Shown piece by piece: positions 36,694 to 55,565 of a stretch of DNA of 62,635 nt. How positions within the stretch are numbered: the stretch's first letter is position 1; the number at the start of each line of letters is the position of its first letter. The translations under genes were made by a program, and so were the position numbers. The notes beneath the pieces were generated by a model, which worked only from the letters and a program-made list of their open reading frames with translations, was not told where the DNA came from and made no database searches. The stretch is from positions 52,228 to 114,862 of the forward strand of contig CAZWVA010000001.1 in NCBI GenBank assembly GCA_964636885.1, given 5' to 3'. Source of the DNA: an uncultured Spirochaetia bacterium. GTDB lineage: Bacteria; Desulfobacterota_D; UBA1144; Nemesobacterales; CSP1-2.

Positions 36694-37170
36694 ATGAAGG
36701 TAGACCCTTTTGAAAAGATCGCTATTTTTGTTGGTGGCGTGCTTCTGGTCGCCTTTCTCATAGCGATAGTCTATGCCAACTTTGGTTGGGGTATAAAGAT
36801 CCCCTCATGTGAAGCGGATACGAAGCCCTTTACAAAGGGGGCCTTCATTGAGAGCGGTCCACGGTCCTACGAGGTGCACATATTGACCAAGATGTGGTAT
36901 TTCGATATGGGGGATAACAGGAATGAAATCACCATTCCCGTTGGCTCAAGGGTAACCTTCTTTGTTACGAGCGGTGATGTCATACACGGTGTTAAGATTC
37001 CAAGCAAGAACATAAACATGATGGCCATCCCTGGAGTGGTCGGTAGACTGGAAACCACATTCGATAAGCCCGGGGAGTACATGGTTATCTGCCATGAGTA
37101 CTGTGGAATAGGACACCAGGGTATGTATGGGAAGGTAAGGGTCACCGAAGAGGTGGCCACAGGTAGGTGA
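36694..37170 (+). CDS. cbaB: ba3-type (family B) cytochrome c oxidase subunit II
   Basis: DVIHG and CHEYCGIGHQGM CuA ligands, one N-terminal TM. Confidence 0.9.
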   Translation: MKVDPFEKIAIFVGGVLLVAFLIAIVYANFGWGIKIPSCEADTKPFTKGAFIESGPRSYEVHILTKMWYFDMGDNRNEITIPVGSRVTFFVTSGDVIHGVKIPSKNINMMAIPGVVGRLETTFDKPGEYMVICHEYCGIGHQGMYGKVRVTEEVATGR

Positions 37171-37196
37171 TGGTATGGTCTTCAAGGAGGGAAGCC

Positions 37197-38831
37197 ATGG
37201 ACAGAATAAGGTCTTTGACTCTCTGGCATTGGTATATAGGATTTGCGGCTTTATTCCTCGGCCTGTTTTTTGGCTTGAGACAGTCTCTAGCCAGAGCTGG
37301 TATCCTGTCTAACTATGATTACTATCAGGGGCTAACCCTCCACGGCGTGCTAAATGCCCTGGTTTTTACGATCTTCTTCATAGTTGGGTTCCTCTATCTA
37401 ACGACTGAGAAATCCCTGAAAAGACCCCTTAAGACCTACGGGCTTGCCTGGTTAGGCTTCTGGGTCATTCTCATAGGCACCGTTTTGGCGGCGGTGCCGA
37501 TACTGACAAAGAGGGCAAGCGTCCTTTATACCTTCTACCCACCTCTTATGGCCCATCCGAGCTTCTATATAGGGCTTGCATTGGTGGTTGTAGGCTCTTG
37601 GATCTCTGCCCTTGTGGTTTTACTTACCTACTTGGATTGGAGAAAAGAGAACCCAGGTATGAGAATCCCGCTTATGTTTGTGGCAACCGCTACCACCTAC
37701 ATCCTCTGGTTTATCGCGACAATAGGTGTGGCAATCGAGGTTCTTTTTCTCCTTATACCGTGGTCTTTAGGATGGGTGAAGGAAACGAATCCCCTCCTTG
37801 CGAGGACCCTCTTTTGGTACTTCGGCCATCCTCTGGTTTACTTCTGGCTTATGCCCGCCTACCTGACCTGGTATACCATAATGCCTAGGGTAGCGGGCGG
37901 TAAGCTCTACAGCGACCCCATGGCTAGGCTTGCCTTTGTACTCTTTATAGTGTTTTCCATGCCTGTAGGAACCCATCATCAGTTTGCCGACCCAGGTATA
38001 AGTACGGATTGGAAAGCCCTCCATACCTTCTTCACCTTCCTTGTAACCTTTCCGAGTTTATTGACGGCTTTTAATCTAGCAGCCTCTCTCGAGTATGCGG
38101 GAAAAAGCAACGGTGGAAGCGGTCTCTTCGGCTGGTGGACAAGGTTACCATACGGTGATCCGGTCTTTGCCTGTTTCATCTCGGCCATGGTCCTTTTTAT
38201 ATTCGGTGGGATAAGTGGCATAGTAAACGCCTCTTATAACGTGAATATGGTCGTCCACAACACCTCTTTCGTATTCGGCCATTTCCACCTTACAATAGGT
38301 TCGGCGGTCTCCCTTACGTTCTTTGGACTCGTCTACCTTATCCTTCCTCAGCTATCTAGGAGGGAGCTCTTGAGCAAGAGACTCGCTTTGTTCCAGGCCT
38401 ATACCTGGCTTTTAGGCATGCTCATATTTTCCTTTGCAAATATGGCCGCTGGAAGGATGGGGGTTCCTAGGAGAACCGATCTTGGGATCGCCACGTACCA
38501 TTTCCCACCTATTGTGGATCACCTTGAAAAGGTATCGGCCGTAGGTGGTGTTATACTCTATATGAGTTCCCTGATCTTCTATGTGGTGTTTGTTGGAACC
38601 CTTTTCTTTGCGAAGAAAAAAGAGGAGGACTCTATTACCCTACCCATAACAGAGGCCTATCAAACGGAGGCGGAGGCCCCTAGGATATTCGATAGGTGGA
38701 GGGTGTGGATAGGAATTGCGGTCGTTCTCATACTTATAGCATACGCACCTGTGTTACAACAGGTCCTCGGCGTCTCGCCGTTTGCTTCCCCAGGATACGA
38801 TCCAAAATTACCGGTGCCTATACCGAGATAG
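37197..38831 (+). CDS. cbaA: ba3-type (family B) cytochrome c oxidase subunit I; likely start ATG at 37197
   Basis: YYQGLTLHGVLN, FWYFGHPLVYFW, HHQFADPG, VHNT..V.GHFHLT, GVPRR. Confidence 0.92.
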   Translation: MDRIRSLTLWHWYIGFAALFLGLFFGLRQSLARAGILSNYDYYQGLTLHGVLNALVFTIFFIVGFLYLTTEKSLKRPLKTYGLAWLGFWVILIGTVLAAVPILTKRASVLYTFYPPLMAHPSFYIGLALVVVGSWISALVVLLTYLDWRKENPGMRIPLMFVATATTYILWFIATIGVAIEVLFLLIPWSLGWVKETNPLLARTLFWYFGHPLVYFWLMPAYLTWYTIMPRVAGGKLYSDPMARLAFVLFIVFSMPVGTHHQFADPGISTDWKALHTFFTFLVTFPSLLTAFNLAASLEYAGKSNGGSGLFGWWTRLPYGDPVFACFISAMVLFIFGGISGIVNASYNVNMVVHNTSFVFGHFHLTIGSAVSLTFFGLVYLILPQLSRRELLSKRLALFQAYTWLLGMLIFSFANMAAGRMGVPRRTDLGIATYHFPPIVDHLEKVSAVGGVILYMSSLIFYVVFVGTLFFAKKKEEDSITLPITEAYQTEAEAPRIFDRWRVWIGIAVVLILIAYAPVLQQVLGVSPFASPGYDPKLPVPIPR

Positions 38832-41211: not shown

Positions 41212-42021
41212 TCAAATATCCTTTCTCTCGAAGATAAGGATAGCCATAAAGAGTGGGATAAAAAGCCAAGCGAGAAGAACCACCAGAGAAATTACCATGC
41301 CCATGGGGCTTCCAAATGTCCTACCCAACACCGCTCCCGCAGGCCCTACGAGTGCCGCGCTTCCAAGCGACATGATAAAAGTCGTTCTTACCAAATCGGC
41401 GGGGTTTAGAAAGAGAAGGGCTATGATTATACCTCCAAAGGCGAGGGTTAGGCCTACCAGGATAAAATCGTATATGATTACAAACCAGAACCAGAGCATG
41501 AAACTTATCCCAATAGACCTTGCCTTCTCTCCTAAGGCTATTGAGACGAGGGAGGCGATTGAGAGGAAGATGAGGGAGAGTAAAACGGAGAGAAGAACAA
41601 GGAACAGGAAGTGTGAGCTCTCCTCGTAGCCTATGTTTAAACCGAGGATAAAACCTGCCGAGATAAAACCAAGAAGAAGGGTCGCCGTAACGGCCGTTCC
41701 GAGGCCGAGATACTTTCCCAACACAGCCTCTTTTCGACTAATGGGTTGAATTAAGAGCAGCTCCCACGACTCCCTTGCCCCGGTGAAGCTATTTGCCCCC
41801 ATTATAAGCGCCATAAGGGGAACGAGGATTAGGACTAGGTTTAGCAGGCTTACGGCGGGTTTCAAGAACGTGTTACCCCCGCCTCCTATGATTCCAGAAT
41901 AGGACACGGTTGAGTCGAGAAGGATAAAAAGAAGGGCAAAAAAGAAAAACCACCTGTTTCTTATGGCGTCCAGAAACTCCCTTTTGGCGATTACGTAAAC
42001 GATTCTAATATCGGTATCCAT
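41212..42021 (-). CDS. nosY: NosY ABC permease
   Basis: IAKREFLDAIRNRW, WELLLIQPISR....GKYLG, LNPADLVR; in nos cluster. Confidence 0.9.
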   Translation of the reverse strand: MDTDIRIVYVIAKREFLDAIRNRWFFFFALLFILLDSTVSYSGIIGGGGNTFLKPAVSLLNLVLILVPLMALIMGANSFTGARESWELLLIQPISRKEAVLGKYLGLGTAVTATLLLGFISAGFILGLNIGYEESSHFLFLVLLSVLLSLIFLSIASLVSIALGEKARSIGISFMLWFWFVIIYDFILVGLTLAFGGIIIALLFLNPADLVRTTFIMSLGSAALVGPAGAVLGRTFGSPMGMVISLVVLLAWLFIPLFMAILIFERKDI

Positions 42022-42460
42022 GCCTTTCCTTCCAGTCCATCTTAAGAAGGGATTCGAGACGCATGGCCTTGCCTCCGGTTTTATCCGCCGTTTCTTTTGC
42101 CTTGATCGGGTCCTTAAACGCTATGATCCCGTATCCCATGGGCGTGTGGATCTCAGGGGAGATAACGAAGTGGGCTTCCTCTCCCTTTATCCACGTTGCG
42201 CCACCAAAATCCATTACCCAGAAGCGGGTTTTCTCGGGGCTAAGATTATTGGCTTGGGCGTAGGCAAACATGCACCCTATGTCATCGAATTTATGGGCTT
42301 TTCCCTTATCTATGATCTCCGCGGAATAACGAAAGTCACTTATAATCATTCGACAGTTTTCACACATGTCTATTCCCCTATTTATGGGAACGGGGGAGTC
42401 ATTTGATCGACAACCCGCTATAAGTAACAGGGAAAAAAGAGGGATCGCTATCCTATAAAT
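42005..42460 (-). CDS. nosL: NosL copper-chaperone lipoprotein; probable ATT start at 42460
   Basis: C..C.M.I, FDDIGC, HTPMGYG motifs; the frame extends upstream to (I)YRIAIPLFSLLLIAG-C lipobox with no ATG/GTG/TTG. Confidence 0.88.
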   Translation of the reverse strand: MYRIAIPLFSLLLIAGCRSNDSPVPINRGIDMCENCRMIISDFRYSAEIIDKGKAHKFDDIGCMFAYAQANNLSPEKTRFWVMDFGGATWIKGEEAHFVISPEIHTPMGYGIIAFKDPIKAKETADKTGGKAMRLESLLKMDWKERHGYRY

Positions 42461-43361
42461 CGGAATCTCCCTCCGTGTATTTGATGAATATCTCTTCGAG
42501 TGAAGGGTCTTCTGTCCAGAAATCCAATATGTTGAACCCGTTTTCCAACAGGGCTTTAATCACCCTTGTCTTATCCCTAGGTGATATAAGACACCTTAGG
42601 TTCCTTCCTCTAATCTCCGCGTCCTTTGCTCCGAGATCCTCGACGAGTTTAATCCCCATTGGGCTCGGATTCTCGAGTACCACCTCTAGAATCGAGCCCA
42701 TCTTAAGCCTGGTCCTTAGTCCTTCCAGTGTATCGAGTGCAACGATCCTTCCCCGAACCAGTATGGCTATCCTCTCGGCGAGCTCCTCTATGTAGCTCAG
42801 TATATGGGATGAGAGGAGGATGGTTTTCCCCCTTCTCTTTTCTTCCCTTATGAGCCTTTTAAAGGCGATCCTCCCCTCCGGGTCCAGGCTGATCGTGGGC
42901 TCGTCCAGTATGAGAATAGGAGGGTCGGAGATAATCGCCTGTGCAAGGGCCAGCCTCTGGATCATTCCACCCGAGAGCGCTCCCACCTTCTTATTCCTCT
43001 GTTCCAGGATCCCCACGGCTCTAAGTACGTCTTCCGGTCTTTTGTTATTCGTGCCCCTTAGCTCGCTATAGAATTCTATGACCTCAAACACGCTGAGGTT
43101 TTCATGAAAGGAGATCCTCTGAGGAACGTATCCTATCCTCTTTTTTATCTCCTTCTGGTTCTTGCTTACCTCTATATTATCAACGAGTATCCTCCCTTCG
43201 GTAGGATGTATAAGGCCTAGAACGGCATTTAGAAGCGTGGTCTTCCCCGCCCCGTTTGGACCGACTATGGCAAAGGTTTCGCCTCTTTGCACCTCAAGAG
43301 AGACCCCTTGGAGCGCCCTTGTGTTTCTATAATCCTTTACGAGGTTCTCAATCCTTATCAT
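42453..43361 (-). CDS. nosF: NosF ABC ATPase
   Basis: GPNGAGKT, LSGGMIQRL, LILDEP; between nosD and nosL. Confidence 0.9.
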   Translation of the reverse strand: MIRIENLVKDYRNTRALQGVSLEVQRGETFAIVGPNGAGKTTLLNAVLGLIHPTEGRILVDNIEVSKNQKEIKKRIGYVPQRISFHENLSVFEVIEFYSELRGTNNKRPEDVLRAVGILEQRNKKVGALSGGMIQRLALAQAIISDPPILILDEPTISLDPEGRIAFKRLIREEKRRGKTILLSSHILSYIEELAERIAILVRGRIVALDTLEGLRTRLKMGSILEVVLENPSPMGIKLVEDLGAKDAEIRGRNLRCLISPRDKTRVIKALLENGFNILDFWTEDPSLEEIFIKYTEGDSDL

Positions 43362-44658
43362 TTTTCGTCCCTTCGTTAGTCCAAACGGGGTTCATTAGAG
43401 GATAAGGGTCTTCGATTTCAACGGGGTTTAGTACGGGAATAATCCTCTCTGCAAACTCAAGTGCCTTCATGCCGGGGCTTTCCATAAAGACCGTGAGGTC
43501 GGGGTAGCGCTTCATCAGATATGAAAGGAGCTTCACCGGTTTGTAGGGGATGTCTCCGATTCCGTCTCCATCTAGATCGTATCCGTTATACCCCTTGTAG
43601 TCGCTCCAGTAGTTTCCGGTTGAGTCCTTAAAAAACCGGTTTGTCGTGCGGTCTGTATCGGTCATCACCTGATACGTGTTGTCTAGAAAGTCGTTCCCAT
43701 ATATCGTATTATCGTTGGAGCTGGAAAACAGGTCAATTGCCCAACCGTTTTGTAAAAACACGTTTCCGGTAAAAACGTTCCTATTGGCATCGTCCATAAA
43801 GACCCCCACCGTATTATTGGATATTATGTTTCCTCTGGCAAGTGTGTCGTTTAGGGATTTAAGAAGCATACCGAACCCGTTTGGACCGAGGTTGTTTTTA
43901 AAGGCGTTTTTTCTAAGAACGATGTTTTTAGAATACATAATCGCGCTTCCGGTTCCGTTTCTCTCAAATGTGTTTTCCTCGAATGTGTTGTCATCCGAGT
44001 ACATATAGTGTAGACCGTATCTCACGTTTCTCTCACAGTGATTCCCTCTTATGGAGTTGCCGGGTGAGAACTCTACGTATATCCCATCCCTGTGCTTTAC
44101 TATGTGGTTTCCCTCGATCGTGTTATTTGGCGACTTCCAGAGGTGAATCCCGTTTCCGTTTTCCTCTTCTGTCGTATAATCCGCTCTTCCATAAGACGTG
44201 TTATTCCTGATCGTGTTGCCGGAAGATGAGTAGAGGTATACGCCTATTATAACGTCCTCGAGTTTGTTCTCTTCGATTATGACCCCTCTTGAATTTGCTA
44301 TCTTTATTCCGCTTTCGTCTTTTAGAAGATCGCCCCCACTTCTTCTTATAGTAAAGCCTTTAATCAAAACCCCGTCAGCCTCTATTCTTATGACGTCGCC
44401 CTTATATCCGCCGTCGATTACGGGTTGATTTTCCCCGATGAGAAACACCTTTTTATCTAGGACTATATTCTCCCTGTACACTCCTTCCTTAACGACTATC
44501 GTGTCGCCTTCGGCTGAGTTCCGGAGTGCTTCTGTGATTGAGGAATAGGCCGATCCTTTTCCTACGGTGATCTCCCCGGCAATTGATTCTGCCCGGAGAG
44601 CGATAAGGGAGATTAAGCCCGTAATTACTATAATCGCTTCTGCCTTGATTCGAGCCAT
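43348..44658 (-). CDS. nosD: Nitrous oxide reductase maturation protein
   Basis: Beta-helix repeats, GNGIHLW, RYGLHYMYSDDN, GNYWSDY.GYDLDGDGIGDIPY.P. Confidence 0.93.
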   Translation of the reverse strand: MARIKAEAIIVITGLISLIALRAESIAGEITVGKGSAYSSITEALRNSAEGDTIVVKEGVYRENIVLDKKVFLIGENQPVIDGGYKGDVIRIEADGVLIKGFTIRRSGGDLLKDESGIKIANSRGVIIEENKLEDVIIGVYLYSSSGNTIRNNTSYGRADYTTEEENGNGIHLWKSPNNTIEGNHIVKHRDGIYVEFSPGNSIRGNHCERNVRYGLHYMYSDDNTFEENTFERNGTGSAIMYSKNIVLRKNAFKNNLGPNGFGMLLKSLNDTLARGNIISNNTVGVFMDDANRNVFTGNVFLQNGWAIDLFSSSNDNTIYGNDFLDNTYQVMTDTDRTTNRFFKDSTGNYWSDYKGYNGYDLDGDGIGDIPYKPVKLLSYLMKRYPDLTVFMESPGMKALEFAERIIPVLNPVEIEDPYPLMNPVWTNEGTKNDKD

Positions 44659-45242
44659 ACTATTATCGGTCCGAGTATAGCCGCAAAACCCATGAGTATT
44701 GCACCGGAGCCCGGAAGGCTTATAACCTTAAAGTTTGCGATCTGTTTTACCCCGATGATGTTCGGTGTAAAAGGATCCATTTTTATCGCGGCTTGTGGGT
44801 TGAGGTTGTGGCCATACTCATAGAGCCATCTGTAGAAGTCCCCTAGCATGAAGACCCCAAACAGGATAAATAGGATCCATCCTATAGTGGCGAAATGCCA
44901 TCTTCCTACGATTGCAGAGAGGAGAGCAAGTACACTAAAGGCGATGATCGTAAAGGGAAGCCACTTAAACTCCTTGAATTCGTCGGGTCTTATCTCGTGC
45001 ATCCCTATATAGTGGTTAAGGGCGTTAATTATCTTGGGGGTATCGTTTGTTAGGTCGAGTTCCGGGTTATACTCCGTCAATTTGTTTGCGTATATGTACA
45101 TCCTTACACCTTTCGGATACTGTGGGGCTACAAGCGTTACCGTCCATATTGGAAGGACTATGGCGGGTATAATAGAAAGAGCCGCAATAACTATAAGAAT
45201 CCGAGCCTGCTTTGATAAGCGACCTGAAAGGACGTTGACCAT
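44628..45242 (-). CDS. nosB: NosB-like membrane protein of clade II nos clusters
   Basis: APQYPKG..M.I, INALNHYIGM, WLYEYGHNL...A.IK. Confidence 0.8.
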   Translation of the reverse strand: MVNVLSGRLSKQARILIVIAALSIIPAIVLPIWTVTLVAPQYPKGVRMYIYANKLTEYNPELDLTNDTPKIINALNHYIGMHEIRPDEFKEFKWLPFTIIAFSVLALLSAIVGRWHFATIGWILFILFGVFMLGDFYRWLYEYGHNLNPQAAIKMDPFTPNIIGVKQIANFKVISLPGSGAILMGFAAILGPIIVWLESRQKRL

Positions 45243-45264
45243 TTTCTTATGATACCTCCCTCAA

Positions 45265-45314
45265 TAAAAAATTGAAGAGGGGAAGGGCGAAAAGAAAAAG
45301 GCCTCCCCTCCTCT
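45265..45314 (-). terminator. Terminator-like hairpin between nosZ and nosB
   Basis: Minus strand GAGGAGGGGAGGC...GCCCTTCCCCTCTT followed by a T-run. Confidence 0.55.
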
Positions 45315-45320
45315 ATTGGT

Positions 45321-47153
45321 TTACTTGGAGCCTTTAGAGGCTACTTCGATATAGCCCTGCATCTCTTGGTGGAGGGCCGAACAGAAGTTTGTGCAGTAAA
45401 AGGGATAGATACCCGGCTTCTCTGCGATCCACTTAACCGTTTTCGTTTCCCCTGGATCTACCTGCATATCTATATTTGAGAAGTTGATCCCAAATCCATG
45501 CGTTATGTCGTTATCCTGTTCGATGTTTGTAACGTGGAAGTACACGGTGTCTCCCTCTTCAACCTTGATGATATCGGGTGTGAAGTGGCTTCTTATGGCG
45601 ATCATGTAAACATCCACCTTATTCCCGTTTCTTTCAATGCGTGCCTGCTCTGGGCTCTTTATCATATTTGGGTCCTTGTTCTCCTCCAGCGGGTATATCT
45701 TCTGGGGGTTTACGAGTCTTGCGTTGATTATCTGACCGTAGTGTGGCTCAACCTGGGTAGGAAAGTCAAGAAGCATTTCCATCTTCTTGCCCGTTATATC
45801 GATGAGCTGTGCGCTCTCCGGGTAGGAGGGGCCAACAGGAAGGTATCTGTCCTTTGCCAGTTTATTCAAGGCGAGCATGTACTTACCCTCTGGGTGCACC
45901 GTATCTCCATGGGCGACGGCGAGGTGCCCTATGGCATAGTAGACCGGGATCTTATCCACGACTTCCCATGTCCCAAGCTTCCACTTGGCAATCGCAGAAT
46001 CTACAAAAAGGGATGTGTATGCGTATCCTTTGTCGTCAAACTGTGTATGAAGTGGACCAAGTCCTACAGGAACCTCGGCGACCCTAACGGATTCGTATTT
46101 GATTATCGGTATCCCCATGGCATCTCCGTCGAAGTCACCTTTCTTTATGGCCTCCTGCATCTTCTCAAAGCTGTGTACGACTGCTACAGCGGCGAGTTTC
46201 CCTCCACCGACTATATACTTCCCGTCAGGGGAGACATCTGCGCCGTGCGGGCTTTTCGGGGTGGGAAGAAGATACACTATACCCTTTACCTCTTGCGGGT
46301 CAATGACCTTGACTCCGTTAATCTCCTTGTATTTCCCCTCTTTAATCGCCTCTTCCGCGGCCTTCCAGTTTACGGCGGCAATAAAGTCTCTGTCTTTCTG
46401 GGAGGCCCCGACCTCTAGTTCCTTATACGCCATCTCGGTGTTGTAAGAGCTAAAGAACGCCCAGCCGTAGCTTACCTGCTTCCCGGCATCGGCCAGGTCG
46501 TAATCGAAGGGCGGCATCAGGATCTGAAAGGCGTTTTCCATGTGCCCTGTATTCTTATCCACACTTACAAAGGCGATTACACCCTTAAAGTTCTCCTTGT
46601 AGCTTTCTATTGAAACATCGCGGTTCGGTACGGGAACCGAAAACCTGGTTGCACCGACCACGTATTCCGTGTTTGGTGTGACAAATGGGCTTGCGTGGTT
46701 TCCAGACACATTGGGAACTTGTATTATCTCCTCTGTGGTGAATGTCTTAAGATTTATGCGGGCTATTCGTGCGCTGTTATTGTCGTTTATAAAAAGCCAT
46801 CTCCCGTCGTAATCTCCGTTTGTCTCCGAGAGGGCGGGGTGATGGGCGTCGCCCCAGGTGTAGCCACCCAGTATGCTTTTACTCTCTTCATCGATGCCCC
46901 ATCCTATGGCTGGATCGGGTGTAAAAACTGGTATCACCCTTAGTAGCCTTCCAGACGGAAGTCCATAGACCGCTATCTGACCGGAATGGCCACCTGAGAG
47001 AAAGGCATAGTAGCTATCGTACTTTCCCGGAGGGACATAGACCTTTTCCGCCGGGCTCTCCTTTCCTTTACAGGCAAAGAGAAGCCCGATAAAGACAAAA
47101 AGGACGGAGAGACATAAAAAGCTCGCTCTGTTTCTAAGACTCATAGATCTCAT
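45321..47153 (-). CDS. nosZ: Sec-dependent (clade II) nitrous oxide reductase with lipoprotein-type signal
   Basis: WGDAHH, GNH, KSPHG, GLGPLH, EPH CuZ ligands; CTNFCSALHQEM CuA; no twin-Arg, LFA-C lipobox. Confidence 0.95.
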   Translation of the reverse strand: MRSMSLRNRASFLCLSVLFVFIGLLFACKGKESPAEKVYVPPGKYDSYYAFLSGGHSGQIAVYGLPSGRLLRVIPVFTPDPAIGWGIDEESKSILGGYTWGDAHHPALSETNGDYDGRWLFINDNNSARIARINLKTFTTEEIIQVPNVSGNHASPFVTPNTEYVVGATRFSVPVPNRDVSIESYKENFKGVIAFVSVDKNTGHMENAFQILMPPFDYDLADAGKQVSYGWAFFSSYNTEMAYKELEVGASQKDRDFIAAVNWKAAEEAIKEGKYKEINGVKVIDPQEVKGIVYLLPTPKSPHGADVSPDGKYIVGGGKLAAVAVVHSFEKMQEAIKKGDFDGDAMGIPIIKYESVRVAEVPVGLGPLHTQFDDKGYAYTSLFVDSAIAKWKLGTWEVVDKIPVYYAIGHLAVAHGDTVHPEGKYMLALNKLAKDRYLPVGPSYPESAQLIDITGKKMEMLLDFPTQVEPHYGQIINARLVNPQKIYPLEENKDPNMIKSPEQARIERNGNKVDVYMIAIRSHFTPDIIKVEEGDTVYFHVTNIEQDNDITHGFGINFSNIDMQVDPGETKTVKWIAEKPGIYPFYCTNFCSALHQEMQGYIEVASKGSK

Positions 47154-47181
47154 CTTATTTACCTCCTTTTTATGCAGTTAA

Positions 47182-47655
47182 CTAGTCTTTTTCTTTATGT
47201 TGTTCGGTTTCCCCTTTTGCTTGGGAATCCTTCATCCTAAAATACATGATGATTGCCTGGGCTTCTTCAGGAGTGACGTTCTGATTGGGCATCCTTACCA
47301 TATATGTTGCGAGTAGCTCTCTGGCTATAGGATCCTTTTCGAGCATGACCTCTGGGTGAAGGATCTGATTTGCAATCCAATCGAGATTCCGTCTCTCCGT
47401 AACGCCGGCAAGATCAGGGCCTGTGCGTTTTCCCTGCCCGATTGTATGACATGCCGAACAGCCCTTGGTCTGAAATAGCTCTTCCCCTTTCTCTGCGAGT
47501 TCATGGTCGATTGGAGGGGGTGCCTTCGCCTCTTCCTCATGGGTTATCTCTTGCTTTGCCTCACCGACTTCTGTTCCCTCTTCTTCCTTGCCCTTACAGG
47601 ATATCAGAATTACTAGGAGAACCGCAACGGCTAACGTTAGGCCCTTTCTTCTCAA
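47182..47655 (-). CDS. Monoheme cytochrome c lipoprotein upstream of nosZ
   Basis: LIS-C lipobox, CSACH, GPDLAGVT, MPNQN. Confidence 0.88.
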   Translation of the reverse strand: MRRKGLTLAVAVLLVILISCKGKEEEGTEVGEAKQEITHEEEAKAPPPIDHELAEKGEELFQTKGCSACHTIGQGKRTGPDLAGVTERRNLDWIANQILHPEVMLEKDPIARELLATYMVRMPNQNVTPEEAQAIIMYFRMKDSQAKGETEQHKEKD

Positions 47656-47697: not shown

Positions 47698-47713
47698 TGC
47701 AATCCTTATGCCA
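47698..47713 (-). promoter_or_regulatory. sigma54 promoter of the nos operon
   Basis: TGGCAT-AAGGA-TTGCA. Confidence 0.8.
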
Positions 47714-47808: not shown

Positions 47809-48414
47809 TTATGCCTCTAAAACCCTAATCGCTGAGTTTGCAACTTCGGCTATGGTTCTACCATAGTCAAGGCCAATGAGACCGCTATTAAAGAAGAGAA
47901 TCGTTCTTGTTATCATTCCTATTACCATCGCCGCTCCCAGGTTCTCATCTATCTTTCTGAAATCTCCTTTTTCGATTCCAAGGCGTATTACTTCCACAAA
48001 GATATCTTTGGGTTTCGGCTTCTCTTCTGGAATCCTTCCCAGCTCTGTAAGGTGTGCTTCCATTATGTATGAGTATGCCTTAGGCTGGTTCTTTGCAAAA
48101 TCAAAAAAGTTTTGAATTAGAACCCTTAGCTTCTCCTTTGGATCGGTGTAGTTGCTTGTGTTTTCTACTAGTTTTTCTCTAAACGTGTCCATATTGCTGA
48201 TAAAAAGCTTAAGGGCAAGGTCATCTTTGCTTTTAAAGTGTTTGTATATGGTTCCCTCTGCTATACCGGCTTTTCTTGCTATCTCCCTCGTTGTAGTGCC
48301 TTTTATCCCCTTCTTTATGAACAGGCTAAGGGCGATATTAAGTATCCTATTCTTTGAATCCAAGAGGCTTCTCTTCTTTCTAATGGCTCTTCTGGCAAGT
48401 GAGTGATTACCCAT
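47809..48414 (-). CDS. TetR/AcrR family regulator (alternative TTG start at 48363)
   Basis: ILNIALSLFIKKGIKGTTTREIARKAGIAEGTIYKHFKSKDDL HTH. Confidence 0.9.
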   Translation of the reverse strand: MGNHSLARRAIRKKRSLLDSKNRILNIALSLFIKKGIKGTTTREIARKAGIAEGTIYKHFKSKDDLALKLFISNMDTFREKLVENTSNYTDPKEKLRVLIQNFFDFAKNQPKAYSYIMEAHLTELGRIPEEKPKPKDIFVEVIRLGIEKGDFRKIDENLGAAMVIGMITRTILFFNSGLIGLDYGRTIAEVANSAIRVLEA

Positions 48415-48605: not shown

Positions 48606-48888
48606 ATGAAAAAGGGCGTTATAGAGATCTCATTCATTCTAATATTGTCCGTTGTGTTTCTCGGAGTCTTCTAGGTTGCTAAACCCGGAAATCCAGAGAC
48701 CCCTAGGGATGAAAAAAGCCCTGCTGCTCCCGTTGCAAATGTCACCATTGTCCTATACGGACCGGTATTGCTGAGGGACGCCTCGTATTTATCGGTGAGG
48801 GGGGAGGCATTGATGGAAAGGTAAATCCGGATTTAAAGGTAAAGCTCGGGGATGTGGTTCAAGTGATCCTCATCAATGGTGAGGGATG
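48606..48888 (+). pseudogene. nirK: 5' remnant of a copper nitrite reductase with N-terminal cupredoxin domain
   Basis: RBS and ATG at 48606, signal peptide, TAG at 48672, 2-nt frameshift near 48755, then RTGIAEGRLVFIGEGGGIDGKVNPDLKVKLGDVVQVILINGEG, cut off at ~48888. Confidence 0.7.
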
Positions 48889-49982
48889 TTTGGGTTTTTT
48901 ATTGGCTTAGCCTCTCTCCTGCTCAAATATACGGTATTTCCGAGAAAGAGAAGAATGGCAATGGCGTTAAGTAGACCTCCCCACTTGCGTCCTAATGGCC
49001 ACTCTAGTAGATCCCCCGTTATCCGAAGGATCAAAGAGATGTGGAGTAGAGCGAGGTGTGCATAAAAGGGTAGATGAAGGGTTAAAAATCTCGGTAAACC
49101 CAGAACTGCCGGAAATATAACGGGTGCGTGTGCGAATATCATCGAAAATACAAACCCGATAAAGATCGAATGTAATATGGCATCGTAGTAAAACCCCGAT
49201 GTCATGCCTCCAAGGAAAACCTCCAACAGCCCACCTAATCCGAGCCACACGTAACCTATGATTAGGCTCAGGGCTATAAATCGGCTTAACCCTTCTTGGT
49301 TCACGGTACGTCGCGCGATATCAAAGCGTAAGAGCCATAGGGCCAAGGCGACCATTCCTATACCCGTAACCTGCACTCCAGCGCTAAAGGCTCTAGTTAC
49401 CAGGATGACACCGAGTATAAAGAGAGAGGCGGCAAGGATAAAAGCCGCTTTACCCCTATTGGATATTTGAAGCATACGGCTGATCTCCAGTCTCTCTCCG
49501 GAGATGGTTAATACCAAGAATCCGATCCACCATATAGCGACCTTATAGAAAGGGAACCCCAAGAGCCAAAGCCCGTTTCCTATGAGCCAGAAGGAGGCCC
49601 CGATCGTGATGACAACCGAGTAAAGGGTAAGGTGGTTATAAAAGATAACCGCTAGAAGGAATACCAAGCCGGCGCTACTTAGGGTCATAAGGGTTATTCC
49701 AAATGGGTCGGGTGTACCCGCTACTAATGCCAGAGCGCCCACTCCACTTAGAAGGGGAACCGCATACGCCCATCTGAGGTTTGAGGCCACCGCCCGCTCA
49801 AGACCTATAAGGGTTCCTAAGAAGCCAGAGACCATAAGGGGGCCGTGGAAAGAAGGTAAGCTTAGCCTGAATAAAGGCAACTCCAATCCGAGGCGAAAAA
49901 GCCCCATCCAGAGCCCGATGAGAAGGGCAAAGCCTCCGAGGACCATTATGAGTAGGCGAAACCCTATTTTCTTCTCCTCCAT
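48873..49982 (-). CDS. NnrS-like polytopic membrane protein
   Basis: HGPLMVSGFLGTLIGLERA, LTISGERLE, YDAILHSIFIGFVFSMIFAHAP. Confidence 0.65.
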   Translation of the reverse strand: MEEKKIGFRLLIMVLGGFALLIGLWMGLFRLGLELPLFRLSLPSFHGPLMVSGFLGTLIGLERAVASNLRWAYAVPLLSGVGALALVAGTPDPFGITLMTLSSAGLVFLLAVIFYNHLTLYSVVITIGASFWLIGNGLWLLGFPFYKVAIWWIGFLVLTISGERLEISRMLQISNRGKAAFILAASLFILGVILVTRAFSAGVQVTGIGMVALALWLLRFDIARRTVNQEGLSRFIALSLIIGYVWLGLGGLLEVFLGGMTSGFYYDAILHSIFIGFVFSMIFAHAPVIFPAVLGLPRFLTLHLPFYAHLALLHISLILRITGDLLEWPLGRKWGGLLNAIAILLFLGNTVYLSRREAKPIKNPNIPHH

Positions 49983-51670: not shown

Positions 51671-52099
51671 CTACGTTTGTTTTCCCACGGGTCGCACCCG
51701 TGACCACATATTATACACAAAGAGAAACCCCGCTACTGCCTGCGACAGGGCACCTAAGACGACCAACAAATCAAATACCCTTGAATCGGTGTAAGAAGTG
51801 ATAACCTCACAGATAAAGCGGGTTGTTGTTCCTAATGTGAGAAACCAATAGATCCCTTCCGCCAGTCTGGGGCTGTAATCGGTTTCTTCCCTTGGGCGGG
51901 GGAACATCCAGATAGATACACCCATTATGAGGGACATCAAAAAACCAAAGAGCAGTATATGGACATGTGCGGTGATAAACTGGGGATGGGGCCAGCTACC
52001 CAGGATGTGTTTTCTCACGATCATATATAGGCCAAGGAGCAGGCCAACCATGAAGAAGATGAAACCCGTCTTTATGTACCGCCTTGCTAGTTCGGGCAT
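51671..52099 (-). CDS. Small heme-copper-oxidase-subunit-I-like / NnrS-related membrane protein
   Basis: AHVHILLFGF....IMGV..WMFPR, four TMs. Confidence 0.65.
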   Translation of the reverse strand: MPELARRYIKTGFIFFMVGLLLGLYMIVRKHILGSWPHPQFITAHVHILLFGFLMSLIMGVSIWMFPRPREETDYSPRLAEGIYWFLTLGTTTRFICEVITSYTDSRVFDLLVVLGALSQAVAGFLFVYNMWSRVRPVGKQT

Positions 52100-53295: not shown

Positions 53296-53311
53296 TGGCA
53301 TAAACCTTGCA
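53296..53311 (+). promoter_or_regulatory. sigma54 promoter of the siroheme reductase
   Basis: TGGCAT-AAACC-TTGCA. Confidence 0.8.
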
Positions 53312-53339
53312 AACTCTGAAGATACAAGGAGGGGTGGCT

Positions 53340-55565
53340 ATGAGTGTAAATGAGGTAAAGATATGGGAGCAAATAGACATAAACAAGGGCTCCGATGTGA
53401 CGAGCGAACTCAACGAGTACGAGGAGATCATAAATAAACTCTACAGGGGTGAGATACATCCTGAAAGGTTTAAATCATACCGTCTTCTTTTTGGAACATA
53501 TGGGGTAAGACACCAGGGCGAGGGGATTCATATGCAGAGGATAAAGGTGCCGAGTGGGTTTATAACCTCTGAGCAACTCCGCACGATAGCGGATGTCGTT
53601 GAGAAATACGCCGGGTCAGGGCATGGGCATCTCACAACGAGGCAGGATATTCAGCTTCACTTTGTGAGACTCGAAAACGTGCCCTCCCTTTTAAGGGAGC
53701 TTGCAAGGGTTGGGATAACGACTCGAGAGGCATGCGGAAACACCGTGAGGAATGTGACTTCATCTTACCTATCAGGGATCTGTCCCGACGAGGTTTTTGA
53801 TACCTTGCCCTACGCCTTATACACAACGAGGTATTTCCTGAGACATACCCTAACATCGACCCTTCCAAGAAAATTCAAGATAGCGTTTTCGGAATGTGAA
53901 AACGACCATGCAATGGTGAGGATCCACGATATAGGGTGTGTTGCTCAAAAGAGACAGAACGGAAAAGATATATACGGTTTTAAGGTCTATGTCGGTGGTG
54001 GTCTGGGTGCTATTCCTTTTTACGCAAAACCTATAGTCGATTTTGTGTCTGTTGATGAGTTCTATCCGCTTGCAGAGGCGATAATCAGGATATTTCACGA
54101 ACACGGAACGGAGGAGAGGAAAAACAAAAACAAGGCGAGAATCAAATTCCTTATAGCGAGAATCGGTTTTGATAGATTCAGGGAGCTCGTTATGGCGGAG
54201 TTTGAACGGGTCAAAAGACTAAAACCCGTAAAGGAGGACCTCGAAAGATACGTGGAGGGTTTCCCGAAACCAGCTCCCGGTAGGAACGGCAGGGAGGACG
54301 GCGGGGAGAATACGAGGCGACTCAAGAATCCGGTTCATAAACCGGACCCCAAGGACGATCTCTACAGGCTGTTCCTTCAAAAATACACTTTCAGGCAGAA
54401 GCAAGAGGGATACTTTGGGGTTTATGTAAAGCCGCCCATAGGAAACCTAAAACCCAAGGAGTTTAGGTTTGTTGCAGATCTCTCTGAGCTCTACGGGGCG
54501 GGTTACGTTAGGATAACACCCCATCAGAAGATCCTTTTGCCATGGGTTGGGGAGGAGTTCCTTTATGATGTTCATACAGAACTGAGAGAACGGGGGTTTA
54601 TAGGTGGCATAAATGAGGCCATGCGGGAGATCGTATCCTGTCCGGGTGCCTTTTCATGCAAACTCGCCGTGACCCATCCATACAACCTGGCGGAGTACAT
54701 AGGCGAGAGGGTCAAGGACCTGGGAGGGGTACGTATCAACATATCCGGTTGTCCAAATAGCTGCGGACAGCACCATGTGGGCGATATAGGGTTTTATGGA
54801 GCGTCGACAAAGGTTGGAGGTAGACTCGCGCCCCATTATGTTGTTATGGTAGGTGGTAATCCATTCAAGCAGATGGAGAGATACGGTCAGGTTATAGGCA
54901 AAGTTCCCGCAAAGAACGCACATCTTTTCGTTAAGGCCGTTGTCGATTTCTGGAAGGAGAACAAAAAGGATGGAGAGGAGTTTTTCGAGTTTACCGACAG
55001 GGTCGGTCTTGACTCCTTTAGACGCGTCCTTGCCCCATTTGCGAAGGCCGATCCCAATGACCCTGAGATCTATGCGGAGCCCGGTATAGGCGAGGACTTT
55101 AAGATGGAGGCCGAGGCTAGGGGAGAATGTATGGGAAGCCTTCTCGACATCATGGCGGTAAACCTGTTTGACTCCATAAGGAACGTATATGAGGCCGAAG
55201 ACGATATGAAGGAAGGAAACTGGAAAGAGGTGAAGAGGAAGTGCCTGGATTCGATACCGAAGTGTGCAAGGATGTATATCTACCTTGACGGCATTGAACT
55301 CCAGGAGGAAGAAGAGATACTAAGTGAGTTTGTCACAAAGATAGTGCCCAGGGGCTGGCTTTGCCACGACTGGTCTGATATAAAGGAGAAATACATGGAA
55401 TGGAGGGACGCCGAGGTTTCAAAAGCCCTCGCTGAGGAGATATACAACTACACAAGGGATCTCGTTAAGGATTGTGACAAGGCGTTTGTAAGATTACAGC
55501 CCGACCTTAAGATTCAAGCGTGCATAAAAGGGAGAGGGGAAGAATCGCATATCCCAGGAGAATAG
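53340..55565 (+). CDS. Siroheme/4Fe-4S nitrite/sulfite reductase (NirA/CysI family) with C-terminal helical extension; start ATG at 53340
   Basis: HLTTRQDIQLH, TTREACGNTVRNV, LPRKFKIA, SCPG..SC and NISGCPNSCGQH ligands. Confidence 0.88.
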   Translation: MSVNEVKIWEQIDINKGSDVTSELNEYEEIINKLYRGEIHPERFKSYRLLFGTYGVRHQGEGIHMQRIKVPSGFITSEQLRTIADVVEKYAGSGHGHLTTRQDIQLHFVRLENVPSLLRELARVGITTREACGNTVRNVTSSYLSGICPDEVFDTLPYALYTTRYFLRHTLTSTLPRKFKIAFSECENDHAMVRIHDIGCVAQKRQNGKDIYGFKVYVGGGLGAIPFYAKPIVDFVSVDEFYPLAEAIIRIFHEHGTEERKNKNKARIKFLIARIGFDRFRELVMAEFERVKRLKPVKEDLERYVEGFPKPAPGRNGREDGGENTRRLKNPVHKPDPKDDLYRLFLQKYTFRQKQEGYFGVYVKPPIGNLKPKEFRFVADLSELYGAGYVRITPHQKILLPWVGEEFLYDVHTELRERGFIGGINEAMREIVSCPGAFSCKLAVTHPYNLAEYIGERVKDLGGVRINISGCPNSCGQHHVGDIGFYGASTKVGGRLAPHYVVMVGGNPFKQMERYGQVIGKVPAKNAHLFVKAVVDFWKENKKDGEEFFEFTDRVGLDSFRRVLAPFAKADPNDPEIYAEPGIGEDFKMEAEARGECMGSLLDIMAVNLFDSIRNVYEAEDDMKEGNWKEVKRKCLDSIPKCARMYIYLDGIELQEEEEILSEFVTKIVPRGWLCHDWSDIKEKYMEWRDAEVSKALAEEIYNYTRDLVKDCDKAFVRLQPDLKIQACIKGRGEESHIPGE

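Follow-up and report, generated by a model that had tools for sequence, protein, structure and literature searches.

A clade II nos operon with predicted lipoprotein NosZ and cytochrome c in a Dadabacteria-like bacterium that probably consumes N2O without producing it

Gene content and surroundings of the nos cluster

The window, that is, the whole stretch of DNA analysed here, spans 62,635 nucleotides of one contig of a metagenome-assembled genome. The assembly has 115 contigs and is 97.4% complete, and absences from it are hence not absolute. A nos cluster occupies positions 41212-47655 on the minus strand, in the order nosC-like cytochrome c-nosZ-nosB-nosD-nosF-nosL-nosY. An earlier reading, made from the sequence only, had listed these seven genes, and all of them were recovered in place and on the minus strand. 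It had also noted that nosR, nosX, nosG, nosH, Rieske and cytochrome b genes are missing, and none was present within the cluster or adjoining it. With nosB directly 3' of nosZ, and with nosR and nosX missing, the locus has the layout by which clade II clusters are recognized.

A TetR regulator and a CBS-domain protein flank the cluster. The gene of the TetR-family regulator (47809..48414, minus strand; PF00440, 62 bits) lies directly upstream of the operon. Between the two, ~40 nt upstream of the cytochrome c start, a sigma-54 type promoter (TGGCAT-N5-TTGCA; 47698..47713, minus strand) was located, as an exact match to TGGCAYNNNNNTTGCW. The pattern matched 12 times in the window, compared with 1.8 expected matches. 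Scans for sigma-70 promoters and terminators gave nothing above chance. The sole ApbE gene of the genome is found on contig 9, unlinked to nos.

For comparison, 80 related loci were collected from Bacteroidota, Ignavibacteriota, Gemmatimonadota, Calditrichota, Eisenbacteria and Dadabacteria. Throughout this set the genes stand in the same order and nosGH is lacking. The cluster had been taken for a special, minimal form; instead, its layout is the standard one of the clade II branch of FCB, Gemmatimonadota and Eisenbacteria. There was no sign of horizontal acquisition, as the cluster and its flanks have the same GC content and 12 of the 14 other genomes of the host's family carry nosZ.

NosZ and the upstream cytochrome c

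The nosZ gene (45321..47153, minus strand) encodes a Sec-type (clade II) enzyme, predicted to be a lipoprotein with Cys28 as its anchor residue. It scored 951.5 bits with the Sec-type profile TIGR04246 (cut-off 625) and just 483.7 bits with the Tat-type profile TIGR04244, which is under the cut-off of 625. The seven histidines of CuZ and the ligands of CuA (His, two Cys, His, Met) are all present, in the motifs DAHHP, NHAS, PHG, LHT, GH and EPH, followed by THGF and C-x3-C-x3-H-x2-M. They align with those of solved N2OR structures (384 bits to 9f8x and 1qni). NosZ has 610 aa, stops just past the CuA domain and contains no CxxCH, confirming that it is without a C-terminal haem domain. Inspection of the N-terminus revealed R-N-R, but no twin-arginine motif of the RR-x-F-L-K type.

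The nosC-like gene (47182..47655, minus strand; PF00034, 46.9 bits) has a TTG start and encodes a monohaem cytochrome c, also a predicted lipoprotein (Cys20). Its single haem motif, CSACH, belongs to a domain preceded by a Glu/Lys-rich linker of ~30 residues.

Lipoproteins were called by a positive n-region, an uncharged h-region and a lipobox of the form [LVI..][..][AGS]-C whose Cys falls within positions 15-35. Both proteins have the positive n-region followed by the uncharged h-region, and the lipoboxes previously suggested for them were found as LLFA-C28 in NosZ (L-F-A-C) and ILIS-C20 in the cytochrome (L-I-S-C). The signal peptidase II, LspA, is encoded in the genome. The two proteins share the mature N-terminus Cys-Lys-Gly-Lys-Glu, which no other of the genome's 57 candidate lipoproteins has, and which recurs in the relative L009. 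In nearly all of the 80 related loci, the NosZ signal peptide ends in Cys. A cytochrome c homologue was found upstream of nosZ in 68 of these loci, and 56 of the 68 homologues have a lipobox-type Cys. A limited literature search returned no statement about lipoprotein NosZ in Gram-negative clade II organisms.

NosB and the maturation proteins

The product of nosB (44628..45242, minus strand) is a four-helix membrane protein with a periplasmic beta-sheet. It had no match in a Pfam profile search, and was recognized by LNHYIGM and YGHN, which are published NosB motifs (PMC9697520). Its AlphaFold2 model (pLDDT 94.8) has four helices and, by structure comparison, a claudin/TARP-like topology (Z 11.1). 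The His, Met and acidic residues conserved in NosB all lie on the periplasmic side. An ESM Atlas search with NosB matched unnamed NosB clusters only. In some relatives NosB is fused to NosL, a fusion that has been described (PMC9697520).

Next to it are the genes for NosD, a periplasmic beta-helix maturation protein (43348..44658, minus strand; TIGR04247, 450.2 bits with a cut-off of 300; PF05048), and for NosF, an ABC ATPase (42453..43361, minus strand; PF00005, 130 bits), whose position is conserved in 73 related loci. The ABC-2 permease NosY (41212..42021, minus strand; PF12679, 84 bits) is likewise conserved in position.

The copper chaperone gene nosL, on the minus strand, extends over 42005..42460 when its upstream lipoprotein signal is included, and its ATG-started ORF over 42005-42367. 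The PF05573 match (52.4 bits) begins at residue 1 of this ORF. Read from canonical starts, NosL is without a signal peptide. The first ATG is preceded by a lipobox, LLIAGC, which can be reached solely from an ATT, ATA or ATC codon; no ATG, GTG or TTG occurs from the stop at 42560 to the ATG at 42367. The export of NosL is uncertain because no canonical start codon precedes the signal peptide. The best start candidate is the ATT at 42460, with a GGAGG 9 nt before it.

A nirK relic and the fate of N2O

On the plus strand, 48606..48889 holds the relic of a three-domain (cupredoxin-fused) NirK, covering codons 2-99, frameshifted near 48755 and truncated at 48889. It was delimited by tblastn with the intact 469-aa NirK of the relative L009 (TIGR02376, 365 bits). 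The matches fell in two frames, one for residues 2-55 and the other for residues 55-99, at 80% identity; there was no match beyond. The nearest relative has an intact nirK at the same site. The sequence-only reading was correct in calling nirK broken, what is left being a frameshifted stub of 99 codons.

That reading had further proposed a possible net N2O sink, a proposal to be abandoned if intact nirK/nirS and nor, or else nosGH, turned up elsewhere. Searches of the whole genome gave no TIGR02376 match above the cut-off, and no nirS, nrfA or haem-copper NO reductase. In a complete denitrifier, intact nirK or nirS would be accompanied by a NO reductase; neither was found in this genome.

Several candidates were considered and rejected. 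The three haem-copper oxidases of the genome keep the active-site tyrosine, by which oxidases are told from NO reductases (PMC11214002), and their best matches are ba3 or cbb3 oxygen reductases. One of them, the CuA oxidase adjoining nos (36694-38831), is not an eNOR, sNOR or gNOR, since both the tyrosine of His-Pro-Leu-Val-Tyr and the CuA motif are kept; it scored 430-465 bits to ba3 oxidases. The haem-copper enzyme on contig 80 is not a cNOR, with 216 bits to the cbb3 subunit CcoN and 33 bits to NorB. It has kept the tyrosine of helix VII and is followed by CcoO-like and CcoP-like partners. There was no support for reading a 142-aa COX1-like ORF (51671-52099) as a broken NOR; it had no PDB match and is kept as a small gene in L009. 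A cytochrome d1 match on contig 100 had just 38 bits and an internal stop, and was not accepted as NirS. On contig 82, a multicopper oxidase with a Tat signal and the motifs HxH, HCH, HxH and HAH is a two-domain laccase-like enzyme and not a divergent NirK.

Contig 42 encodes a type II DMSO-reductase-family enzyme (Nar/Nxr-like), beside an Rrf2/NsrR-like regulator. This enzyme could be a nitrate reductase.

With its nitrite reductase lost, the organism probably consumes N2O without making it, and the proposal of an N2O sink holds. It would not be a net sink if N2O-forming enzymes were encoded in genome parts missing from the assembly, or if it had NO- or N2O-forming enzymes of an unrecognized kind. 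The fragmentation and 97.4% completeness of the assembly leave some room for this, and the multicopper oxidase of contig 82 and the Nar/Nxr-like enzyme of contig 42 are putative candidates. We consider it quite unlikely: the nirK stub is a positive sign of loss at the ancestral site, the contig 82 enzyme is laccase-like (HCH, HxH) and reached 115 bits where the NirK cut-off is 296, and 37 of the 42 nosZ carriers in the phylum are likewise without nirK. Decay could also have spread to the nos operon itself, leaving a NosL that is not exportable for want of a start codon and a NosZ that is then poorly matured. The dead nirK next door and the missing ATG, GTG or TTG upstream of the NosL lipobox are in line with such decay. 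However, the signal-peptide frame of nosL is open and conserved, the candidate GGAGG-ATT start retains its ATT in the relatives L009 and L010, the other nos genes are intact and the ligands of NosZ are complete, all of which make decay highly improbable. We favor, with a probability of about 75%, the view that this Dadabacteria-like host carries an intact and functional nos operon, inherited vertically and of the common clade II type of FCB/Eisenbacteria.

Electron supply to NosZ

A whole-genome Fer4_5 (PF12801) search for NosH/NapH/NosR-type proteins matched CcoG only. The NosGH module (a NapH-like Fer4_5 protein and a NapG-like protein), which the sequence-only reading had allowed might turn up elsewhere, was found neither in the cluster nor in the genome. 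No PF00033 match indicative of a bc-complex cytochrome b was obtained in the 97.4%-complete genome, and the four Rieske matches are all small proteins (110-144 aa).

A complete alternative complex III, ActABCDEF, is encoded on contig 18 (L090 7902-691, minus strand). The act genes were identified by a pentahaem ActA, a fused molybdopterin-like/FeS ActB, an NrfD-like ActC, ActD and a monohaem ActE. Their products are a QrcA-like five-haem protein, a 988-aa QrcB+QrcC-like fusion, an NrfD-like protein of 444 aa, ActD (PF11821, 148 bits), a monohaem protein of 174 aa and, from the sixth gene, a protein of 418 aa. ActD was present in 116 of 120 genomes of the phylum. The proposed lack of a quinol-oxidising module is accordingly true of the cluster, but not of the genome. 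The quinol-oxidising step is most likely performed by alternative complex III. Its link to the nos cytochrome was reached by elimination, the act genes being located elsewhere with no linkage to nos.

Alternative complex III would oxidise menaquinol and pass the electrons to the nos-encoded cytochrome c, which may swing from its lipid anchor on the flexible, acidic linker of ~30 residues. The cytochrome would then reduce the CuA site of NosZ, kept near the membrane by a tether of ~8 residues. NosDFY and NosL would load the copper, and NosB may act as a claudin-like tetraspan in copper delivery or scaffolding. The host would thereby respire or scavenge external N2O, producing none.

Two other routes were weighed. 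The sequence-only reading had NosZ share its membrane-tethered cytochrome c with the oxidases, which would make the protein a general carrier for NosZ and the neighbouring cbb3 and ba3 oxidases. All three require a c-type donor, and a ccoNO-ccoP-ccoG cluster and a ba3-type oxidase lie within the same 30-kb region as the nos operon. Sharing is nevertheless unlikely, since the cytochrome keeps its place directly upstream of nosZ in 68 of the 80 loci surveyed, across many phyla and regardless of neighbours, and would be transcribed together with nosZ from the nos promoter. The oxidases could be served by the other small c-type cytochromes of the genome, a soluble one of 129 aa and two membrane-anchored monohaem ones. 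From the conserved position, the sigma-54 promoter joint with nosZ and these other cytochromes, the protein looks dedicated to nos. Alternatively, NosB might be the missing quinol dehydrogenase, forming with the cytochrome and NosZ a self-contained quinol:N2O oxidoreductase that works without alternative complex III. Nearly every clade II cluster has NosB, the operon encodes no other membrane redox protein, and NosB is indispensable for the respiration of N2O in Wolinella succinogenes (Hein et al. 2017, as cited in PMC9697520). Against this, all 24 invariant residues of NosB are in periplasmic loops and none is in a membrane helix, and the confident claudin/TARP-like model has no known cofactor site, so that a quinol-oxidising NosB is very unlikely. 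Its role is most likely copper delivery or scaffolding.

Implications

Both this type of nos cluster and a lifestyle of consuming N2O without producing it are already well known. Biologically, this potent greenhouse gas is consumed mainly by clade II N2O reducers that do not denitrify. The Dadabacteria-like candidate lineage is a useful addition to inventories of N2O reducers, and changes no concept.

In methods papers, clade II NosZ is handled as a Sec/SPI protein. In our survey, lipoprotein signals on NosZ and the cytochrome were near-universal across the branch of FCB, Gemmatimonadota and Eisenbacteria, which matters for the purification, localisation and modelling of NosZ. The results also point to alternative complex III as an unstudied electron entry in most environmental N2O reducers. 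A more far-reaching and rather doubtful possibility is that, in the whole branch, the co-tethered NosZ and cytochrome c form with the claudin-like NosB a membrane N2O-reducing assembly docked on alternative complex III, with co-sorting by Cys-Lys-Gly-Lys-Glu in Dadabacteria. If true, clade II NosZ would have been wrongly pictured, in its largest environmental branch, as a soluble periplasmic enzyme of the Sec/SPI type.

Comparison with known nos systems

The Wolinella succinogenes cluster is said to have been described by Hein, Witt and Simon in 2017 as nosZ-B-D-G-C1-C2-H-F-Y-L. It shares with the present one a Sec-type NosZ, nosB adjoining nosZ and the maturation genes nosDFYL. In contrast, its NosGH menaquinol dehydrogenase, NosC1/NosC2 and the haem c domain of NosZ are absent here, as is the Rieske/cytochrome bc complex on which W. 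succinogenes depends.

Similar clusters are found in Flavobacterium azooxidireducens and F. denitrificans (PMC9697520) and in Gemmatimonas aurantiaca, with a cytochrome c, a Sec-type NosZ and nosB/L/D/F/Y. The Flavobacterium cluster has the order nosZ-nosB-nosL-nosD-nosF-nosY (PMC9697520). As here, the Bacteroidota and Gemmatimonadota clusters are without nosR, nosX, nosG and nosH, many of their carriers are non-denitrifying N2O reducers, and in the related loci the signal peptides of both NosZ and the cytochrome likewise end in Cys. They differ in having nosL after nosB, whereas here and in the Eisenbacteria/Dadabacteria sister clade it lies between nosF and nosY. The sigma-54 promoter and the TetR neighbour also set the present cluster apart from them.

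In Bacillota, membrane-associated denitrification involves nosC-nosZ-nosB-nosDYF (Heylen and Keltjens 2012, as cited in bioRxiv 10.1101/2024.05.17.594689). According to that citation, nosZ comes after a cytochrome c gene and before nosB, and nosGH is lacking, as here; the Bacillota enzymes are membrane-tethered, while here tethering is predicted. For the monoderm Bacillota, a lipid anchor is the sole way to retain an exported enzyme, whereas in the presumably diderm host it would be a choice. A membrane-bound N2O reductase is also on record for Flexibacter canadensis (Jones, Hollocher and Knowles 1992, as cited in PMC13685413). By that citation, the enzyme of this member of the Bacteroidota was in the membrane fraction, where a lipobox on NosZ would be expected to place it.

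Gene content and promoter of the nos operon

Seven closely packed genes run in one direction on the minus strand (41212-47655), in the order cytochrome c, nosZ, nosB, nosD, nosF, nosL and nosY. The cytochrome c is a monohaem protein of 157 aa (PF00034, single CSACH motif). NosZ (610 aa) scored 951.5 bits against the Sec-type model TIGR04246 (cut-off 625 bits) and just 483.7 bits against the Tat-type model. Alignment to N2O reductases of known structure (9f8x and 1qni, 384 bits) revealed all CuZ histidines and all CuA ligands. The protein ends a few residues past the CuA domain, and its sequence lacks a CxxCH motif. NosB (204 aa, 44628-45242) has no Pfam family and carries the published NosB motifs LNHYIGM and YGHN (PMC9697520). 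The remaining minus-strand genes encode NosD (TIGR04247, 450 bits), the ABC ATPase NosF, NosL (PF05573) and the ABC-2 permease NosY. Profile scores, NosB motifs and gene order agreed with the gene content and layout proposed in a sequence-only reading.

A TetR gene precedes the operon and a CBS-domain gene follows it. The sequence at 47713-47698, directly 5' of the cytochrome gene, matches the sigma-54 promoter exactly. Such matches numbered 12 in the window, with 1.8 expected by chance. They span 28245-58539, and the genes downstream of them include a P-type ATPase (5' of the cbb3 oxidase cluster), CBS, nos, TetR and a nitrite/sulfite reductase.

Predicted lipoprotein signals

The lipoboxes read earlier on both NosZ and the cytochrome were recovered. 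The NosZ N-terminus has a positive n-region and an uncharged stretch followed by L-F-A-C (predicted lipidation at Cys28), and that of the cytochrome has R-R-K and an uncharged stretch followed by L-I-S-C (Cys20). Signal peptidase II is encoded in the genome. In the cytochrome, some 30 residues rich in Glu and Lys link the predicted anchor to the haem domain; in NosZ, just about 8 residues lie between the predicted anchor and the propeller domain. After predicted cleavage, both mature proteins would start with Cys-Lys-Gly-Lys-Glu (47596-47582 in the cytochrome, 47069-47055 in NosZ). Among the 57 lipoproteins predicted by regular expression in the genome, only these two have this start, which is also found in both proteins of L009, one of the two nearest relatives. 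It may be a common sorting or retention signal.

The NosL lipobox (LLIAGC) is located 5' of the first ATG (42367), and no ATG, GTG or TTG occurs between that codon and the stop at 42560. Translation of nosL probably starts at the ATT at 42460, which a GGAGG precedes by 9 nt and which is kept in both nearest relatives (L009, L010). These relatives also have a TTG within nosF, a possible alternative nosL start, where the window has TCG through a synonymous nosF change.

Probable electron route to NosZ

In the 97.4%-complete genome, CcoG was the sole Fer4_5 protein, so NosH, NapH and NosR are missing, and no bc-complex cytochrome b was found. The absence of nosGH, nosR and a bc complex thus extends genome-wide. 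However, a quinol-oxidising module, which the cluster itself lacks, is encoded on contig 18 as a canonical alternative complex III gene set: five-haem ActA, fused ActB (988 aa), NrfD-like ActC, ActD (PF11821, 148 bits), monohaem ActE and a sixth, membrane subunit. ActD occurs in 116 of the 120 genomes of the phylum, and quinol:cytochrome c oxidoreduction by this complex is therefore a housekeeping function of the lineage.

By elimination, electrons would most likely pass from menaquinol through alternative complex III and the nos cytochrome to the CuA of NosZ. The cytochrome had been regarded as a carrier shared with the oxidases. Besides it, the genome encodes two monohaem cytochromes with membrane anchors and a soluble cytochrome c of 129 aa. 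This, and the conserved linkage of the lipoprotein cytochrome to nos, argue that it is instead a dedicated donor to NosZ.

NosB

In an alignment of 42 NosB sequences, all 24 invariant positions fell in periplasmic segments, among them His77, Met81, Glu91, Asp135, His145 and the YGH motif. The AlphaFold2 model (pLDDT 94.8) has four membrane helices bearing a periplasmic beta-sheet. Its best structural matches were claudins, TARP subunits and DUOXA1 (Foldseek E about 1e-3, TM 0.45-0.5), and structural comparison with VIA gave Z 11.1 over 157 residues; judged from the model, this likeness is one of topology only. Nothing pointed to a haem, flavin or quinone site. Given this and the existence of NosB-NosL fusions, copper handling or scaffolding is a more likely role than quinol oxidation.

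The nirK relic and probable N2O consumption

L009 has an intact, cupredoxin-fused NirK (469 aa, TIGR02376 365 bits), encoded two genes 5' of its cytochrome-nosZ pair. This protein matched the window at 48606-48889 alone, with residues 2-55 and 55-99 in different frames (80% identity); nothing beyond residue 99 was matched in the window, and nirK reached the cut-off nowhere in the genome. The gene is therefore broken, as noted earlier. The relic, on the plus strand, is cut short where the gene of a polytopic membrane protein (48873-49982, 369 aa, no family match) ends.

A contig 82 protein (L008, 4270-5280) was rejected as NirK: it is a two-domain multicopper oxidase that carries HCH motifs and is exported by Tat. 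The NirK model hits it weakly (115 bits), and it is easily mis-annotated as nirK. For NirS, the best cytochrome d1 match had 38 bits and an internal stop, and NrfA was not found in the genome. All three haem-copper enzymes retain the active-site tyrosine that is missing from NO reductases (PMC11214002) and best match ba3 or cbb3 oxygen reductases, so none was accepted as an NO reductase. The nitrate and nitrite enzymes detected were assimilatory, a NasC-NirB fusion (contig 65) and a NirA-type enzyme (53307-55565). Contig 42 (L092, 2648-8708) encodes a type II DMSO-reductase-family alpha subunit (1168 aa) with beta and haem b gamma subunits, next to an Rrf2/NsrR-like regulator; these subunits may form a periplasmic enzyme of the Nar/Nxr kind.

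In the phylum, nirK was present in just 8 of 120 genomes and absent from 37 of 42 nosZ carriers. Since N2O-forming enzymes were not found and most nosZ carriers of the phylum lack nirK, the organism is a probable N2O sink, a habit typical among clade II carriers (PMC11409646).

Two oxidase-like loci deserve mention. Contig 80 (L007, 2475-5175) encodes a second, divergent cbb3-type oxidase (CcoN 267 bits, far under the cut-off), whose other subunits resemble CcoO and CcoP. Of the COX1 family, a 142-aa four-helix ORF (51671-52099) matches only the initial third (48 bits). Given its conservation in L009 (1408-1826, 69% nucleotide identity), this ORF is probably a small gene in its own right, not a broken oxidase.

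Phylogeny and inheritance

NosZ was closest to the proteins of a Spirochaetia-labelled MAG (87% identity) and of a MAG assigned to Candidatus Dadabacteria (82%), followed by those of Eisenbacteria (60-66%). In the NosZ tree, the window grouped with those two MAGs (support 1.0), and this trio was nested in a 16-member clade of mostly Eisenbacteria (support 1.0). NosZ-bearing Dadabacteria MAGs were reported previously (PMC5877337). NosZ of this kind occurred in 42 of 120 species genomes of the phylum and in 12 of the 14 other genomes of the family, and was absent from small-genome lineages. The GC content of the cluster equals that of its flanks, and the cluster therefore looks vertically inherited. 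Two record labels conflict with NosZ tree and synteny: "Spirochaetia" for L009, which is closely related to the window, and "Oscillatoriaceae cyanobacterium" for L022. Both MAGs are probably mislabelled or misbinned.

Comparison with known nos clusters

In 80 related loci from Bacteroidota, Ignavibacteriota, Gemmatimonadota, Calditrichota, Eisenbacteria and others, the usual order was cytochrome c, nosZ, nosB, (nosL), nosD, nosF, nosY, with no nosG/nosH insertions. The layout is thus not special, though it had been called minimal; the sole local oddity is nosL after nosF, in the Dadabacteria/Eisenbacteria clade. Of the sequence-only interpretation, the missing nosGH, nosR and bc complex, the dead nirK and the probable sink stood, whereas minimality, the lack of a quinol-oxidising module and the shared cytochrome did not.

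A cysteine closes the hydrophobic stretch in nearly all NosZ N-termini of these loci. A monohaem cytochrome c lies 5' of nosZ in 68 of the 80, with a lipobox-type cysteine in 56 of the 68. The lipobox is thus a trait of a large known group, not peculiar to this locus. Clade II NosZ is viewed as Sec/SPI in the papers searched, and our literature search found no paper calling this branch lipoprotein-type, so the generality of the lipobox may be under-appreciated. The reference list of one paper includes a 1992 report of a membrane-bound N2O reductase in Flexibacter canadensis, a member of Bacteroidota (PMC13685413). NosB-NosL fusions (336-364 aa) without a separate nosL were found at eight loci (L027, L031, L032, L054, L055, L065, L072, L083). 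Flavobacteria have the same nos cluster type, including such fusions (PMC9697520), and the window's cluster belongs to this well-known kind of system.
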